Virus record (IMG/VR): IMGVR_UViG_2541047954_000002
Coordinates: 1-43,165 of that record
DNA length: 43,165 nt
Source: a virus
Taxonomy: Duplodnaviria; Heunggongvirae; Uroviricota; Caudoviricetes
Strand: one strand, 5' to 3'
The notes beneath the pieces were generated by a model that worked only from the letters and a program-made list of their open reading frames with translations, made no database searches and was not told the DNA's origin. Position numbers and translations under genes: made by a program. How positions within the stretch are numbered: position 1 is the first letter of the stretch; each line of letters opens with the position of its first letter. Shown piece by piece: positions 3,471-41,926 of this stretch.

Positions 3471-4275
3471 TACCTTTATCCCAGATGGATTTTATGGTCG
3501 TCCATGTGACTGGTACTTTAATTTCAATCCGCCCGCTACCGTCACAGGTATCGCAATCATCATCGCCAAAGCATTCCGGGCAGCTGATAAACGTAGTTTC
3601 TGAAAATTCACCGGATAGCGCACCCTTAGCGCCGTTCTCGGCTGTTAGTCTCTTCGGCACCATGACCCAACCATCCGGAGTTACCGGAGAGTTGCCATTT
3701 ACATCGAAGTTTGGCTCTGCGTCCTGAACCAGGAGGATGTAACCATTCTTGGCTGTATCAAGTTCTAACGCCTCGGTGACGGTGCCGAAATAGCGATTAC
3801 CTAAATCAGCATCACAAGTGCTTACATCAATGGAAACTTCCATGCCCTCGATTAATTCTGGCAAGTTGTAAGTTTGGCTTACGGGTTCGGCTTCCAGTTC
3901 TGCTATGCGCTTTTTTGCTGCTTCCAGATCAACACGCAGCTTCCCTACCGTTAGCGCAATATCCTCGTTCTCCTGGTCGCGGCGTTTGATGTATTGCTGG
4001 TTTCTTTCCCGTTCATCCAGCAGCGCCAAGACGGTAGCCGGATTGGCTGCGGCGATGAATTCAGCGTTGGCCTGCTGTTCCATTTGGAAATCTTCATCGA
4101 AACCGCTTTCTGGATGCGCTCCTTCAATTCTGCAAATAGGAATATATCCAGAAACCTCGCGATGAATTAGTGCATCATCACCATCAAATCGTCCCTCTCC
4201 ATATTCGAGCGACCATACACCACACGTTGCTTTCTCTGCCTTTTCACGCAGTGCCTGATAGTCAATCTTGCTCAC
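3424..4275 (-). CDS. Ead/Ea22-like protein with C-terminal Cys-rich zinc-ribbon; proposed GTG start with strong SD
   Basis: Contains the ANAEFIAAANPATVLALLDE-type motif and coiled-coil typical of Ea22-like proteins, C-terminal CPECFGDDDCDTCDGSG; AAGGAGG lies 6 nt upstream of the GTG at 4275; the ATG at 4467 would overlap the Lar domain by ~200 bp. Confidence 0.55.
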   Translation of the reverse strand: MSKIDYQALREKAEKATCGVWSLEYGEGRFDGDDALIHREVSGYIPICRIEGAHPESGFDEDFQMEQQANAEFIAAANPATVLALLDERERNQQYIKRRDQENEDIALTVGKLRVDLEAAKKRIAELEAEPVSQTYNLPELIEGMEVSIDVSTCDADLGNRYFGTVTEALELDTAKNGYILLVQDAEPNFDVNGNSPVTPDGWVMVPKRLTAENGAKGALSGEFSETTFISCPECFGDDDCDTCDGSGRIEIKVPVTWTTIKSIWDKGIAYFAAEPPQEVNLG

Positions 4276-5153: not shown

Positions 5154-5462
5154 TCATGATTTACTCTCCACGAACTGGTCAATAGCCATGCTAAGTGACA
5201 CACCTAAAGTCTCGATATGCTGCTGAATATCCTGTAGCGTCTGCGCCTGAGATAACAGGATTTCACGGTTGCATAACTCTTTAACCAGATGCTCAAACTT
5301 GCTGTAATAACCGATACGACTTAGTGTTTCTTTGCCTGCATTCTCGCCTTCTTTGATAATTCCTCTTTCACTAAGAATCAGGTCGTGTTTTGTTCCGGTA
5401 ATAACGTATTTGCCGAGGTCGATGTTTAGCTTCATTGTTTTCATTGTTAATTCCTCAGTCAT
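5154..5462 (-). CDS. Hypothetical protein (~100 aa; start at 5462 or 5444)
   Basis: ORF with ATGA overlap to the upstream gene stop; GAGGAA SD before the 5444 ATG; no family recognised. Confidence 0.4.
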
Positions 5463-5748
5463 TACTGATAGCGCCATAGCGTGAGCGGTAATTACGCAGG
5501 CGCGGGTCAATTTCAGGGAAGTGGGTATATGTGGCTTTGCGGAATGGTCGGATTGATGTCTGGTAAATTCGCTCGCGTTCTTCTTTCTCTGCAAGCCATA
5601 TACAGTGGCGAAATTCCTTTTCATCTTTCGTTTCCTGCGGTAGAGACATTATCTGGTCGTAGTTTTTCCTGAATTTATCCAGCACCTCCAATACGGAATT
5701 GCCGGAACAGCGGCGCGCGTCGTCCGCACCATACAGAGGCGCTGGCAT
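5455..5748 (-). CDS. Hypothetical protein, 97 aa
   Basis: Intact ORF downstream of the SSB-like gene in the same operon. Confidence 0.4.
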   Translation of the reverse strand: MPAPLYGADDARRCSGNSVLEVLDKFRKNYDQIMSLPQETKDEKEFRHCIWLAEKEERERIYQTSIRPFRKATYTHFPEIDPRLRNYRSRYGAISND

Positions 5749-5771
5749 AATGGAATCCTTATGTTGCTACT

Positions 5772-6155
5772 TTAGAAGGGAATTGAATCGTCGTATTCAG
5801 GATGATTTTGATGATTGCTACTTTGCTGCTGTTGGCTGTTTCCTGAAGTTGCAAATCCAATCTTTGCATTCAGTAATTCAAGAGTGATTGATTGACCATT
5901 TTGCCCCTGATAAACATCAACCCTGATGTTTTCTCCGGTAATTTCTACAATGCCACCTTCAACAAGAACACTACGGTAGTAATCCGCTTGCGCTCCCGGC
6001 TTGGCAAATACAACGGCGCTGTAGTTTGTCCGTTCTTTCTTTTTTGTCTGGCGATCGTAATACTGAACGCCAGCACGGATGTTGAATCCGATATTTTCCC
6101 CGGCCTGAAACTCTCTTGCGGGCTTGTTTAGTCTTACAGTAATCGAATGTGCCAT
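5772..6155 (-). CDS. SSB-like protein with C-terminal acidic tail (ends ...EYDDSIPF)
   Basis: C-terminal DDxIPF-type tail characteristic of bacterial/phage SSBs; Gln-rich linker; immediately downstream of erf with a TAATG overlap. Confidence 0.5.
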   Translation of the reverse strand: MAHSITVRLNKPAREFQAGENIGFNIRAGVQYYDRQTKKKERTNYSAVVFAKPGAQADYYRSVLVEGGIVEITGENIRVDVYQGQNGQSITLELLNAKIGFATSGNSQQQQSSNHQNHPEYDDSIPF

Positions 6156-6760
6156 TAAGCAGCCGCTCCTTCTAATTCATCTCGTCTGATGTTGTAAACG
6201 TCCTGCGCTTTGTGCTGCTCCGGTGTGCCTTCGAGCATCTTCCACGCTTTGGCGAACGCCTGTTTAAGCTCTTCTACGGTGTTTTTCTGCATTGCTGCGT
6301 CAGTGAATGCTTTTAGAACCTGTTCAGGTGTAGGTGATGGTTTTGATTGCTTTACTGCTGCGTTCTGCTGATGTTTATGCTCGTCTGTATCTGCATCTTT
6401 CGCATCATCAATGCCGAACAAACCATTGAGGCAATACTTGCGTGCATAAGAGCTTGTAGCGCCCGTAACTTGTGCAGAATCCATTCCTTTCTTGCTTTCT
6501 TCCTCTCGTGCAAGAGCGGTTGCCGTATGACTGTTTTCGCCATCGGTAATAGTTGCCGTGGCTTTCACGTAATACCGATCACCAATCAACACAACTTCAT
6601 CGCTGATTGATAAAAACAGGCCATTCAGTAACGGCTTAACGCCTTCAAGAATGTCTTCGCAGCTTCTGTATTTATATTTGCCGAATGAGTTGTACTGATT
6701 CTTTGGCGCGTTCAGATTCTCCTGAATAGCTGCCAGTCTTGCGTAAAATTCTTTGCTCAT
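6155..6760 (-). CDS. erf: Erf-family single-strand annealing recombinase (P22 Erf-like)
   Basis: MSKEFYARLAAIQENLNAPKNQYNSFGKYKYRSCEDILEGVKPLL... closely matches remembered P22 Erf; start set at the MSKEF methionine. Confidence 0.85.
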   Translation of the reverse strand: MSKEFYARLAAIQENLNAPKNQYNSFGKYKYRSCEDILEGVKPLLNGLFLSISDEVVLIGDRYYVKATATITDGENSHTATALAREEESKKGMDSAQVTGATSSYARKYCLNGLFGIDDAKDADTDEHKHQQNAAVKQSKPSPTPEQVLKAFTDAAMQKNTVEELKQAFAKAWKMLEGTPEQHKAQDVYNIRRDELEGAAA

Positions 6761-6861
6761 ATGATTGTTCTCAGAATGGACACGGCCCAAGGAAATAACG
6801 CTGATTTAATACTTCGACTCGTGACAAATTAAGGCATACCCGCATTCCTTCGCGGTCGCCA

Positions 6862-7020
6862 TTATGGCGATACCAGAGAGCTTTCTGCGTGTACATGCGT
6901 CTCTGTAACTTGCTCTCCTTCACTGTGGTTGCAAGTGACATGAATATCTCCTTCGTTACCGATTAAATCTTTCATCTGACGAATGAATTCTTCGTCTGAC
7001 CAGTTATCTGTAAAACTCAT
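6862..7020 (-). CDS. Small ORF (52 aa) between kil and erf, possible Arf-like accessory protein
   Basis: Hand-translated ORF MSFTDNWSDEEFIRQMKDLIGNEG...; start overlaps the kil stop (ATGA); position matches arf in P22-like early regions. Confidence 0.3.
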   Translation of the reverse strand: MSFTDNWSDEEFIRQMKDLIGNEGDIHVTCNHSEGEQVTETHVHAESSLVSP

Positions 7021-7169
7021 TTCCTGCGATACCACGGAAGGTTGATAGCTGATTTCATCGCTTTATTTGCTTCAAACCACATTTTGGAATCACCAATAAA
7101 TCTGGCTATTACTGCTTTGTTTTGTGCAGCACGAAGCATCTGATGATTTATGGCTATTTCATTGCGCAT
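7017..7169 (-). CDS. kil: Kil-like host cell division inhibitory peptide, 50 aa
   Basis: Hand-translated MRNEIAINHQMLRAAQNKAVIARFIGDSKMWFEANKAMKSAINLPWYRRK; the IA-FIGD-KM motif resembles lambda Kil; located immediately downstream of cIII as in lambda. Confidence 0.55.
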   Translation of the reverse strand: MRNEIAINHQMLRAAQNKAVIARFIGDSKMWFEANKAMKSAINLPWYRRK

Positions 7170-7285
7170 AATAAGACCTCAACTCTTTTCCATCCGTCAC
7201 GTAATTTACGGGTGATTCGTTCAAGTAAAGATTCATTTAATTGGAAGGCACCCATGCGAGCGCCTCCCGCGATTGCGTAAATCAT
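7154..7285 (-). CDS. cIII: CIII-like protein (FtsH inhibitor), 43 aa
   Basis: Hand-translated MIYAIAGGARMGAFQLNESLLERITRKLRDGWKR...; the ESLLERITRKLRDGWKR core is as I remember lambda CIII. Confidence 0.75.
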   Translation of the reverse strand: MIYAIAGGARMGAFQLNESLLERITRKLRDGWKRVEVLLCAMK

Positions 7286-7309: not shown

Positions 7310-8278
7310 TTAGTAGGTTATTTTTGTTGCGAATACTTCGCCTTTTACGATGGCTGTTATGATATTTTTAGCAACATCTTCTGATGCGCCAACCTTGATA
7401 AGGTCAGCAAGTATTTTGTTATTTACTTCTTTCCGGTGAGCTTTATCCTTTGCTCTACACTCTTCTTCTTCCTTGATTCTTTTTTCTTCTGCTATTCTGG
7501 CTTGCTCTTTTGCTTCAGCCTCGCGCCGGATTCGTTCAGCCTCCTCCTGTGCTTTTCGGCGTTCTGCTTCAATTGCCGCCTGCTTTTCTCTTTCAGCTCG
7601 TTCTGCTGCCTCTTTTGCTTCGCGCTGTGCTCGTTGCTCGGCTTCAATGCGTTCACGCTCTGCACGTTCCGCTGCGGCCTTAGCTTCTGCTTCTCGCCTT
7701 GCTGCTGCTTCAATTTCGGCTTTTGCCTTTGCTTCGGCTTCTGCTCTGGCTTTCTCTTCAGCTTCTCTTTTTAAGCGTTCTTCATGCTCTCGCTTTTCCT
7801 GCTCAGCTTTGAGTCTTGCCTCTTCTCTTTGGCGGTCAAATTCGCGATCCATCAAAATCGCTATTTCATGGTCAGACTCAATTTGCTTTGCGAGAGCTTC
7901 AGCTGCTGCCTTAGCTTCTTCTTCGGCTTTAATCCGTGCCTGTTCATCCTCATAATCAGTAAGAGGCTGGCGTGCCTTGGCTTTCAGCTCATCAAGTCGA
8001 TCACGCACTGTCTTGCGGTTGGCATCAATTAGCTTTGGAATTTCCTTCAGTTCAGCAACAAGGTCTTTGCCAAGACCATCGAGATATGTTTTCGTCTGCG
8101 CAACTTTATACGCCAGAGAAGCGATCTCCTTTCTTCCCTTTGCCGTTGTTATATCAGGCACAAAGGACATAACTTCACGTTCAACCTTTTGGAGAATTTC
8201 TTCAATCTGGTCGGCAGACTGAAATACAGTCATTGCATTTGCTTTTTCAATAACAACTAAATCTGTTACTTCACTCAT
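7310..8278 (-). CDS. Highly charged coiled-coil protein with E/A/R/K-rich low-complexity core, 322 aa
   Basis: Long ORF, GGAGGA SD before the ATG at 8278; central ~150 aa is an almost pure Glu/Ala/Arg/Lys repeat. Confidence 0.6.
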   Translation of the reverse strand: MSEVTDLVVIEKANAMTVFQSADQIEEILQKVEREVMSFVPDITTAKGRKEIASLAYKVAQTKTYLDGLGKDLVAELKEIPKLIDANRKTVRDRLDELKAKARQPLTDYEDEQARIKAEEEAKAAAEALAKQIESDHEIAILMDREFDRQREEARLKAEQEKREHEERLKREAEEKARAEAEAKAKAEIEAAARREAEAKAAAERAERERIEAEQRAQREAKEAAERAEREKQAAIEAERRKAQEEAERIRREAEAKEQARIAEEKRIKEEEECRAKDKAHRKEVNNKILADLIKVGASEDVAKNIITAIVKGEVFATKITY

Positions 8279-8410
8279 ATATCCTCCATCAAAAAAATCG
8301 CCCTCACATCGGAGGGCAAAGAAGATTTCCAATAATCAGAACAAGTCGGCTCCTGTTTAGTTACGAGCGACATTGCTCACATAGCAGACTCGCAAATCTG
8401 CTATAGGTGC

Positions 8411-9398: not shown

Positions 9399-9439
9399 CT
9401 GTTGTTTATGCCAAAAATAAAGGACGATTATGCGACCTC
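9399..9439. repeat. Copy 2 of the 41-bp direct repeat (degenerate hairpin)
   Basis: Same 26-bp core as copy 1; lies between the stop of the 9428..10051 gene and the start of the 8894..9364 gene. Confidence 0.85.
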
Positions 9440-10051
9440 GGAAGGAAGTCCAATCATCTTATTCAAATCTTCTACCCGTAAAGCAGGAAGTGCAGTACTT
9501 GCTTTATCTGCTTCTTTTGGTAGCAACTCTTTGCTTTCAGGCCAAACTTCAATAAGTCGCTTAACTGTTGTGACTGAGTTCAAAGCAGCCCATACATTTG
9601 ATTCGATATCCTTTTTCTTGGCTTCAAATTTTTGTTGCAATGCGCAGATTTCATCAAACCTTTTTGTTATTTCGTGTTCTGCGCTAAACATGCATTTATC
9701 TTTGGTCGGAGTAGGGAGCAATATATCTTCGCCGTTGCCGTCTTTCCCATATGAATACCAGCCAACCCTTCTGCCAGATACAGTCAGATAAATTGAAGTT
9801 GAACGGGCATCGCATGAGTAAAATGAACATCCCAGCTTTTCAAGTTCTTCACTTATAGCTACTAACTTGGATGATAACTGATCCACTTCCTCAGTTTTCT
9901 TTTTACCGCCAAACGCAATAACTCTGGCGTCAAGTGCAAGCTGGTTATTTAACTTTGTTACTTCTTCAAGTTCAGTGAAAACCCCGGACTTAATTAAAGC
10001 GTTACGAGCGATTTTCTCTTTCATTCTCGTAGTTAAGCGGATTGATGACAT
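9428..10051 (-). CDS. Hypothetical protein, 207 aa, first gene downstream of N in the pL operon
   Basis: ORF with GAGAGGAA SD before the ATG at 10051, 11 nt after the N stop; AT-rich; no family recognised. Confidence 0.5.
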   Translation of the reverse strand: MSSIRLTTRMKEKIARNALIKSGVFTELEEVTKLNNQLALDARVIAFGGKKKTEEVDQLSSKLVAISEELEKLGCSFYSCDARSTSIYLTVSGRRVGWYSYGKDGNGEDILLPTPTKDKCMFSAEHEITKRFDEICALQQKFEAKKKDIESNVWAALNSVTTVKRLIEVWPESKELLPKEADKASTALPALRVEDLNKMIGLPSEVA

Positions 10052-10062
10052 ATTAATTCCTC

Positions 10063-10389
10063 TCAAATAAGTGGTTTGCTGCCTAATTTCATTTTCTGGC
10101 GACCAACACAAGTCACACCCATTTCACTGCGTGGCTTGCTGTACCATGTGCGCTGATTCTTGCGCTCAATACGTTGCAGGTTGCTTTCAATCTGTTCGTG
10201 GTATTCAGCCAGTACCGTAAGGTCTATCGGATTCAGTGCGCTTTCTACTCGTGATTTCGGTTTGCGATTCAGCGAGAGAATAGGGCGGTTAACTGGTTTT
10301 GCGCTTACCCCAACCAACAGGGGATTTGCTGCTTTCCATTGAGCCTGTTTCTCTGCGCGACGTTCGCGGCGGCGTGTTTGTGCATCCAT
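10063..10389 (-). CDS. N: Antitermination protein N (lambda-type), 108 aa
   Basis: MDAQTRRRERRAEKQAQWKAANPLLVGVSAKPVNRPILSLNRKPKSRVESALNPIDLTVLAEYH... matches lambda N including the arginine-rich motif. Confidence 0.95.
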   Translation of the reverse strand: MDAQTRRRERRAEKQAQWKAANPLLVGVSAKPVNRPILSLNRKPKSRVESALNPIDLTVLAEYHEQIESNLQRIERKNQRTWYSKPRSEMGVTCVGRQKMKLGSKPLI

Positions 10390-10540
10390 CTGGATTCTCC
10401 TGTCAGTTAGCTTTGGTGGTGTGTGGGAGTCGTAGTCCTGAACGAAAACACCCCGCGATTGGCGCATTGGCAGCTAATCCGGATTCGCACTTCCGGCCAA
10501 TGCTTCGTTTCGTATCACACACCCCAAAGCCTTCTGCTTT

Positions 10541-41449: not shown

Positions 41450-41926
41450 TTAACTAAACATCGCAGTAATCGAGGCACTCGCCAGAGAGTGAAAATGAAC
41501 GTTAAACCCGACCATCGCGCCGCTGGCACCTTCATCGACATCAATACGTTCTACATCCAGCGCGTGAACGGTAAAAATGTAGCGATGGGTTTCGCCTTTC
41601 GGCGGCGCTGCGCCATCGTACCCGGTTTTACCAAAGTCGGTACGCGTCTGCAAAACGCCGTCTGGCATAGCTACCAGACCAGAGCCAAACCCTTGCGGTA
41701 ATACGCGGGTATCAGCGGGTAAATTAACAACTACCCAGTGCCACCAGCCGGAGCCGGTTGGCGCATCCGGGTCATAGCAGGTGACAACAAAACTTTTCGT
41801 TCCCACAGGAACATCATCCCACGCCAGATGCGGTGAAATATTATCGCCATCGTAACCCATGCCGTTAAAGACATGACGATGCGGCAGCTTATCGCCATCG
41901 CGCAGATCGTTACTGATGAGTTTCAT
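41450..41926 (-). CDS. ybhB: Host YbhB (PEBP/Raf-kinase-inhibitor-like family protein), 158 aa
   Basis: MKLISNDLRDGDKLPHRHVFNGMGYDGDNISPHLAWDDVP... recognised as E. coli YbhB, the attB-flanking gene on the bio side. Confidence 0.9.
   Translation of the reverse strand: MKLISNDLRDGDKLPHRHVFNGMGYDGDNISPHLAWDDVPVGTKSFVVTCYDPDAPTGSGWWHWVVVNLPADTRVLPQGFGSGLVAMPDGVLQTRTDFGKTGYDGAAPPKGETHRYIFTVHALDVERIDVDEGASGAMVGFNVHFHSLASASITAMFS

Follow-up and report, generated by a model that had tools for sequence, protein, structure and literature searches.

A predicted rod protein beside the annealing-recombinase modules of phages: an E/A/R/K-rich early gene of a P22-like Escherichia coli prophage

What does a phage early gene do when much of its product is built from glutamate, alanine, arginine and lysine (E/A/R/K), and can such a gene keep its length? 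The question is raised by positions 7310–8278, minus strand, of a 43,165-nucleotide stretch of viral DNA, IMG/VR record IMGVR_UViG_2541047954_000002, which we refer to in its entirety as the window. The window is a P22-like (Lederbergvirus-type) E. coli prophage with an early region ~97% identical to those of CUS-3, Sf6, HK633 and their relatives. An earlier note on this DNA, made from the letters alone, placed in the early operon a long E/A/R/K coiled-coil protein with no recognized enzymatic motif, took the DNA encoding it to be repetitive and unstable in length, and called its function unknown. The coordinates of the gene prove to be exact, its open reading frame (ORF) is confirmed, and it does lie in the pL operon. 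The verdict on function now appears too pessimistic, given an annotation in phage phi80 and a linkage to recombination (Rec) modules, although the role that these allow us to name is a putative one. The best explanation, which we place somewhat on the probable side of even, is that the gene product is a rod-shaped protein with an accessory or modulating part in the phage recombination module. Taken by itself the gene is ordinary; what deserves to be kept is the family-wide association with Rec modules and a rod whose length is quantized in phase with the helix.

Family membership and linkage to recombination modules

As a sequence the gene is already known, having been in GenBank since Sf6 was sequenced: it is Sf6 gene 33 (NP_958209; 98.3% nucleotide identity) and a member of the phi80 agt family and of PHROG 1376, which matches residues 1–322 with E = 3.9e-109. 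Copies with 96.6–98.8% nucleotide identity in mEp213, mEp234, mEp043, HK544, IME10, Sf101, CUS-3 and Stx1a phages are variously annotated as hypothetical, TolA or "antitoxin"; like Sf6 gene 33, they are flanked as in the window (tL2A on the 5′ side; cIII, kil and erf on the 3′ side), and this is essentially the same gene. In phi80, a tblastn search of phage genomes found PHI80_40 (AFV29176.1), which is 51% identical in amino acid sequence over its full length (E = 7e-64; both proteins have 322 residues) and is annotated "agt, anti-toxin for Gam; Mog (modifier of Gam)." It is followed in order by gamL ("host RecBCD/SbcCD enzymes inhibitor; toxic without Mog"), recT and exo. The phi80 and window proteins share a three-part architecture, their length and a place at the head of a pL Rec module, whereas the modules themselves differ, the window having cIII, kil, Erf, an SSB-like protein and Abc2 where phi80 has gamL, recT and exo.

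The family is large. Searched exhaustively with HMMER, 1.84 billion cluster representatives yielded 5,458 proteins at E ≤ 0.001, some of the weaker of which may owe their match to the low-complexity rod, and 527 at E ≤ 1e-30, so that the family comprises at least 527 clusters at 50% identity. Full-length members have 290–393 residues (median 317); these length statistics are drawn from the exhaustive search, a word-indexed search having given almost only truncated proteins of 235 residues or fewer. Among established families and folds the protein stands apart. Pfam holds no family for the window protein or for 124 homologs, scans of NCBIfam and PADLOC gave no family match, a sequence search of the PDB yielded low-complexity matches only (e.g., Zuotin at E = 0.007), and Foldseek found nothing below E = 1.6 in the PDB and exclusively family members in a viral library. 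The statement that the protein has no recognized enzymatic motif is thus borne out. Weak NCBIfam matches to NlpC/P60 and TraG were set aside as composition noise. Also set aside was the presence of an 804-residue RecE/exonuclease VIII-like protein (P0304) in the 90%-identity cluster of phi80 Agt; it has no visible likeness to Agt, and its inclusion is probably a clustering artefact.

Many database records nonetheless carry the names "cell envelope biogenesis protein TolA," "TolA" or "colicin import membrane protein," and the E/A/K-rich helical composition does resemble that of TolA domain II. We consider it extremely improbable that this is a TolA-like protein of the cell envelope or of colicin import, and tests of membership effectively refute the idea. 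The N-terminus, MSEVTDLVVIEKANAMTVFQSADQ, has no long hydrophobic run and hence no membrane anchor in its sequence; neither a TolA model nor the C-terminal domain III of TolA was matched in Pfam by the protein and its 124 homologs, or in NCBIfam; and the conserved N-terminal and C-terminal domains that flank the rod are specific to the phage family. The TolA and colicin-import product names evidently reflect composition only.

It is the genomic context that points to a function. With the alignment of the N-terminal domain as query, 80 loci were found in IMG/VR, and in all 80 the homolog and the downstream Rec-module genes lie on the same strand. An annealing protein was detected in 75 of these loci and starts 67–1,525 bp (median 308 bp) past the end of the homolog. 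The first one encountered is a phi80-type RecT in 27 loci, a second type of RecT (Pfam RecT, E = 7.7e-27) in 16, one of two Erf types in 28, a 186-residue protein that matches nothing in Pfam in 3, and a Sak4-like ATPase in a single locus; 3 further loci have SSB only, and 2 are short contigs that end just past GamL. The association extends to more distant phages. The homolog precedes Erf and an exonuclease in a Pseudomonas D3-like phage, ERF and YqaJ in Sinorhizobium phiLM21, RecT and an exonuclease in an Acinetobacter phage, and an uncharacterized gene, exonuclease VIII and Bet in Serratia Eta; in Vibrio Seahorse it follows an AAA_24 ATPase and an uncharacterized gene. In four metagenomic contigs (L003, L004, L007 and L009) the homolog is found upstream or downstream of a recombinase pair, and in another (L008) its neighbors are a YqaJ gene, transcribed divergently, and a gene with a weak likeness to RecT. 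Three further metagenomic contigs, being too short to include neighboring genes, were left out of account. The window gene occupies the family position, on the same strand as the Rec module and on its promoter-proximal side, as in phi80 and Sf6. The family, in short, almost always adjoins annealing-recombinase modules, and it does so with at least five unrelated types of recombinase.

The 186-residue protein (positions 5865–6425 of L007; also in L056, L079 and L093) stands where an annealing protein would be expected, with GamL or YqaJ on one side and a YqaJ-type exonuclease on the other, and may represent an unrecognized family of annealing proteins.

Linkage of this kind might also be carried along by a conserved operon order, in which case the gene could be an accessory early gene unrelated to recombination, serving, for example, anti-defence or host takeover. 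The slot between tL2 and cIII is variable in lambdoid phages (Sf6 gp34, ral and gp36 are nearby, and HK633 has different genes), a Tad2-like anti-defence gene lies near the homolog in one locus, and a 2025 survey that covered 325 lambdoid Rec modules omits the family, the functions it lists being SSB, nuclease, annealing and anti-RecBCD, with GamL mentioned (PMC12315714). We regard such a role as unlikely, however, because the linkage, in either gene order, reaches beyond the lambdoid group to phages of Pseudomonas, Sinorhizobium, Acinetobacter, Serratia and Vibrio as well as to metagenomic contigs, and because PADLOC found no match.

The phi80 label suggests something narrower, namely, that the protein is devoted to the RecBCD inhibitor that the phage itself encodes, as its antitoxin or modifier, with Abc2 being the partner in the window. 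The phi80 record speaks directly of an "anti-toxin for Gam" and of a gamL toxic without Mog; GamL follows the homolog directly, beginning within a few bases of its stop codon, in 37 of the 80 loci, with a divergent 100-residue GamL-like ORF in 3 more (L039, L053 and L092); and Abc2 is indeed encoded in the window. Even so, we find this reading improbable. GamL is missing from the remaining 43 loci, about half of the sample, and Abc2 is found in just 3 of those. The window has no GamL-like sequence (the best tblastn match has E = 1.3), and its Abc2, encoded 1.5 kb from the gene, bears no relation to GamL. A protein that is kept with at least five types of recombinase, in company with known inhibitors or without them, is unlikely to be in the service of a single inhibitor.

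The 100-residue ORF (MFMAAYHFQDRIEEQSWNQHY...; ~6007–6309 / 5974–6276) lies between the Agt-like gene and RecT. It matches the N-terminus of phi80 GamL weakly, with a blastp E value of 3e-4 (48% identity over 33 residues) and may be a divergent type of GamL, possibly one that the NCBIfam phi80_GamL model misses.

The rod and its length in distant relatives

Conservation among 124 aligned members, taken together with structure prediction, shows a protein in three parts, all encoded on the minus strand: an N-terminal helical domain that includes a basic helix, a helical rod of ~170 residues that is probably continuous, and a C-terminal domain of ~42 residues. The N-terminal domain (residues 1–110; 7949–8278) emerges from the alignments and is modeled by AlphaFold with a predicted local distance difference test (pLDDT) score of ~85–91; R49 is invariant, and D42, T45, G48, K63, G70, K71, K78, D85, R88, R103, P105, L106 and E110 are conserved in at least 90% of members. 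The rod (residues 111–280; 7439–7948) is defined by its periodicity, its conserved alanines and the AlphaFold models. The small C-terminal domain (residues 281–322; 7313–7438) follows the consensus HRKxINNxxLxDLxxxGxxExxAKxxIxAIxxGxIxxxxIxY and is modeled with a pLDDT of 91–96; judged from the tails of 129 homologs, it is a near-constant 41–42 residues long and usually ends in I-x-Y, H281 being conserved in 91% and Y322 in 97%. Across the family the median net charge is +6 for the helix at residues 45–105, −10 for the rod and +2 for the C-terminal domain.

Two segments of the rod can be told apart. Near its start lies a hydrophobic motif, DHEIAILMDREFDR (residues 136–149; 7832–7873), with the consensus ExDHExALLxNxxFDR, found also as DHE(I/M)ALLM(D/N)xxFDR; its mean column conservation is 0.54, versus 0.29–0.48 in other segments of the rod, and it is a candidate docking site. 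Beyond it comes the nearly pure E/A/R/K core (residues 150–285; 7424–7831, 408 bp), where sliding 30-residue windows are 83–97% E/A/R/K and where a degenerate 22-residue repeat is apparent. The peptide quoted in the earlier note, EAKAKAEIEAAARREAEAKAAAERAERER, is residues 182–210 of this core. The protein as a whole is 19% glutamate, 19% alanine, 11% lysine and 10% arginine, and the composition windows bear out its description as long, helical and rich in E/A/R/K.

Structure prediction, which the earlier note had proposed as a check, yields a long helical rod with or without an alignment. From the single sequence AlphaFold predicts one uninterrupted helix over residues 110–295; from a 124-sequence alignment (mean pLDDT of 86) it predicts two helices, 46–197 and 212–295, separated by a low-confidence break at 196–210 and folded back on each other as a hairpin. 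The rod does not have the core of a conventional coiled coil. In any register, only 3–13% of heptad a and d positions hold large hydrophobic residues, and power at a period of 3.5 residues is near background, with the apolar peak at 3.65–3.67. Alanine and hydrophobic residues taken together have a periodicity of 3.67 (half-height 3.62–3.71; coherence ratio 1.55) from E110 to H281, and the two halves of the rod each peak at 3.66–3.67 with a phase difference of ~7 degrees. The claim of a coiled coil accordingly survives in part: there is no heptad core, but there is a helical rod, of hendecad type, with a 3.67-residue alanine seam.

Conserved alanines at positions 173, 177, 181, 206, 217, 224 and 235 fall on one 11/3 seam, which runs through the putative apex of the AlphaFold hairpin. 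The seam is unbroken there, which speaks for a continuous helix; the monomeric fold-back hairpin that the alignment-based model would suggest may be an alternative. A continuous helix packed on another copy of itself would fit all of the observations, and an antiparallel arrangement of the two would explain why AlphaFold joins the N-terminal and C-terminal domains.

The rod has a good deal in common with the single alpha-helices of the ER/K class, including a very high fraction of charged residues and, in the single-sequence model, a helix without interruption. It differs from them in that 25% of its residues are alanine, with a conserved seam, and in that charge pairing between residues i and i+4 is just moderate; the conserved alanine seam would imply helix-helix packing, which single alpha-helix domains lack. 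With hendecad coiled coils and TolA domain II it shares a long helix rich in alanine and charge, an apolar periodicity of 3.67 and a degenerate 22-residue repeat. We therefore read the rod, from its residue pattern, as an alanine-seamed helix of hendecad type, distinct both from heptad coiled coils and from the classic single helix of the ER/K class.

The lengths of the rod in distant relatives follow the same period. The distance between two anchors, E110 and H281, was measured in 108 diverse homologs, where the commonest values are 142, 149, 153, 160, 164, 171, 182, 189 and 193 residues. A periodogram of these rod lengths peaks at 3.65 residues, with R = 0.83 for all lengths and R = 0.53 for the 27 unique lengths (p = 0.003 versus random lengths). 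At a period of 3.5, R is just 0.50, and steps of 14, 21 or 28 residues are absent among the 108. The 80 independent homologs from IMG/VR fall almost wholly on an 11-residue series, with distances of 160 (n = 2), 171 (n = 55), 182 (n = 20) and 193 (n = 1); the outliers are 157, which is 14 below 171, and 214. Individual indels show the pattern as well. In phi80 Agt a gain of 11 residues early in the rod is offset by a loss of 11 later on, bringing the total back to 322 residues, and a 22-residue deletion in HK633 is 2 x 11. Since rod length shifts by whole helical turns, the domains at its two ends must keep a fixed rotational register. The rod is, in this respect, a clean natural case of length evolving by whole turns of a helix. 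The 11- or 22-residue repeat in the peptide may bias which indels arise in the first place, and we infer that mutation and selection both probably contribute.

DNA repetition and allele length

The repetition just described sits in the peptide and not in the DNA. The core peptide has a degenerate 22-residue repeat, EAKxAAERAER / ExIEAEQRAQR, which is visible when the residues are laid out in rows of 11 and which gives a lag-22 identity with z = 4.1. At the DNA level Tandem Repeats Finder detects two weak arrays only in the gene, with scores of 43 and 48, and no exact direct repeat in the core exceeds 12 nucleotides, the length that codon shuffling would produce (average 11.7 nucleotides, with 50% of shuffles reaching at least 12). 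The description of the encoding DNA as repetitive was therefore an overstatement. As for its codons, said to be rich in GAA, GCA and CGC, the first two are indeed the most frequent in the core (29 and 20), whereas CGC occurs just 5 times, behind GAG (12), AAA (10), AGA (8) and CGA (6).

Is the gene nevertheless a contingency-type tract of unstable length, or even a nonfunctional ORF? The low complexity of its composition would invite such a view. The gene is found in 35 phage records, at the identities given above, and in 530 of 5,426 complete E. coli genomes (~10%), from which 55 full-length copies, evenly spread over the carrier genomes, were sampled for length. It is exactly 969 bp long in 32 of the 35 phage records, the exceptions being two HK633 records at 903 bp and CUS-3 at 970 bp, and in 48 of the 55 E. 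coli copies, the others measuring 970 bp (4 copies), 966 bp (1) and 955 bp (2). On the timescale of close lineages, then, the tract is not length-unstable. Rare variants of 903, 955, 966 and 970 bp do exist, and many database entries are partial and cut off at contig ends, but these are outweighed by the constancy at 969 bp, by the want of any real, slippage-prone tandem repeat in the DNA, by terminal domains conserved in at least 527 distant clusters, and by length differences that are quantized and preserve phase. We put little stock in an unstable or nonfunctional tract, only marginally more than in a TolA-like protein. The comparison of lengths among homologs that the earlier note had called for thus came out against instability in close relatives, while distant ones do range from 290 to 393 residues; they do so in helical-turn steps, which argues for constraint and not for instability.

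The rare variants are of different kinds. In HK633 a clean in-frame deletion of 66 bp, or 22 residues (AAERAERERIEAEQRAQREAKE), lies between two imperfect AAERAER repeats. In CUS-3 a single additional T at codon 113 divides the gene precisely where the N-terminal domain gives way to the rod, leaving ORFs of 116 and 214 residues that correspond to two separate PHROGs, 17211 and 21365. This allele may still work, in two pieces, or it may have become a pseudogene recently. The two ORFs overlap, the second beginning at an in-frame ATG, and the 970-bp length recurs in several genomes of extraintestinal and avian pathogenic E. coli (ExPEC/APEC).

The partial match that was inspected, in E. coli O104:H4 2009EL-2050 (3500–3649), is no mosaic allele but a remnant truncated by IS1B in which the last 150 bp are left; the prophage is degraded, yet cIII, kil, erf, the SSB-like gene and abc2 all survive intact downstream. 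A large share of the database copies are partial proteins that end where their contigs end. Short-read assemblies apparently tend to break within the gene, because of its low-complexity core or because a genome holds several prophage copies.

Proposed role and operon setting

If the protein is an accessory factor of the recombination module, as we favor, the gene would be the promoter-proximal member of that module, which in the window would run from it through cIII, kil, two small ORFs and Erf to the SSB-like protein and Abc2. The protein would self-associate along its alanine seam into a stiff rod, and either an antiparallel dimer or a fold-back hairpin would bring its N-terminal and C-terminal domains together. 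In the phage's dealings with double-strand DNA ends such a rod might act as an adaptor or a modulator, alongside the phage's own recombinase and anti-nuclease (GamL in phi80, Abc2 here). Its target would likely lie in the host, RecBCD and SbcCD being examples, or else be a phage nuclease inhibitor; one particular annealing protein would be an unlikely choice. Since the family of the partner recombinase varies freely, the target is more probably something common to all of the carrier phages, that is, host end-processing enzymes or DNA ends, than any single annealing protein.

Several observations weigh against an accessory role in recombination. One Vibrio podophage context has no recognizable recombinase. 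The 80 IMG/VR loci come mostly from enterobacterial prophages related to one another, and their synteny could be partly inherited and not selected. In the window prophage cIII and kil separate the gene from erf, the 2025 survey leaves the family out of its Rec modules, and the frameshifted two-ORF allele of CUS-3 may mean that the intact protein is dispensable there. The only functional label the family carries is the phi80 GenBank annotation, and because the window has no GamL, the role annotated in phi80 cannot apply literally, or at least cannot be the sole function. The oligomeric state and the binding partners are matters of inference.

A broader proposal can be made more tentatively. We speculate that the Agt/gp33 rods are a widespread, unrecognized component of the Rec modules of Proteobacterial phages and act directly on RecBCD/SbcCD or on DNA ends, the phase-tuned hendecad rod being a rigid spacer that would fix how far apart two binding domains lie and in what rotational register; this we consider possible but doubtful. 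If it were true, the family could supply the missing anti-nuclease or modulator in modules with no known RecBCD inhibitor. One such module is the "mEp234 type," which has no known anti-RecBCD function (PMC12315714); phage mEp234 carries a near-identical copy of the window gene. More generally, if the family modulated end processing or the inhibition of host nucleases, it would supply a missing part of the account of how phages with neither Gam nor Abc2 cope with RecBCD. The family is large and stands beside annealing-recombinase modules, yet it has been mislabeled as TolA and is not in the latest survey of lambdoid Rec modules. It may also have some relevance to recombineering toolkits, since the phi80 record marks gamL as toxic without Mog.

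A comparable position is held in Firmicutes phages by DUF1351 genes, which are likewise placed ahead of Erf, Sak4 and RecT (PMC8093625). The example we examined, gp48 of Oenococcus phage phi9805 (308 residues; PF07083, Pfam E = 3.3e-34), lies directly upstream of Sak4 and SSB. It has a weak co-linear likeness to the window family, with a basic N-terminal helix and an "AHQK.VN" motif near its C-terminus, and it has no E/A/R/K rod. None of the 124 family members matches DUF1351 in Pfam, and hhalign gave a probability of 0.4–0.75% against phi9805 gp48 and a 5-sequence DUF1351 alignment, a profile that is thin. These comparisons give no support for homology, and DUF1351 is left as a positional analog.

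Turning to the gene itself, the minus-strand ORF of 322 codons plus stop (7310–8278) begins with an ATG at 8276–8278 and ends with a TAA at 7310–7312. A strong Shine-Dalgarno sequence read from the DNA, GGAGGA (8282–8287, minus), lies 6 nucleotides 5′ of the ATG. Directly 5′ of the gene a terminator scan predicts an intrinsic terminator (8288–8319, minus), the counterpart of Sf6 tL2A, with an 8-bp stem that includes 5 G-C pairs (8319–8298) and a run of seven T residues extending to ~8289. The mechanical ORF starts farther upstream, at a TTG at 8332, and this longer frame would cross the terminator. We take the ATG at 8278 as the real start, because the TTG frame spans the terminator and because the N-terminus of every homolog reads MSE. 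Given that a terminator precedes the gene, and by analogy with the lambda paradigm, expression is probably delayed-early and dependent on antitermination by N. Antisense ORFs listed across the gene (e.g., 7473–7955, plus strand) are probably by-products of its low-complexity sequence.

The pL operon reads leftward from an N-like antiterminator ORF (10063–10467) through an Nmad5-domain gene (9428–10051, minus), three small ORFs and the terminator to the gene under study, and then to cIII. The genes downstream of it, all on the minus strand, span 5455–7285, the Rec module extending from erf onward. They comprise cIII (7154–7285) and kil (7017–7169), both identified from the annotations of Sf6, HK633 and O104:H4; two small ORFs between kil and erf (6862–7035 and 6771–6941); the Erf annealing protein (6155–6760; Pfam ERF, E = 3.6e-44, and a PHROG match); the SSB-like protein (5772–6155; PHROG match); and the anti-RecBCD protein Abc2 (5455–5748; matching phage annotations).

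A few smaller observations concern these neighbors. The Nmad5 ("nucleotide modification associated domain 5") gene, between the N-like gene and the E/A/R/K gene, encodes 207 residues and matches PF18757 over its full length (E = 2.8e-70) as well as PHROG 1965. The overlapping ORFs at 6771–6941 and 6862–7035 (56 and 57 residues) are the counterparts of Sf6 gp29/gp30 (HK97 gp42/42.1-like), for which we see no visible basis for the RefSeq label "recombinase"; a counterpart of the 56-residue ORF lies directly 3′ of the Agt-like gene in locus L028. Finally, the whole window contains one Chi site (GCTGGTGG), on the minus strand at 41741. Lambdoid phages with an anti-RecBCD gene tend to have few Chi sites (PMC12315714), and the window, in which Abc2 is present, fits that pattern.

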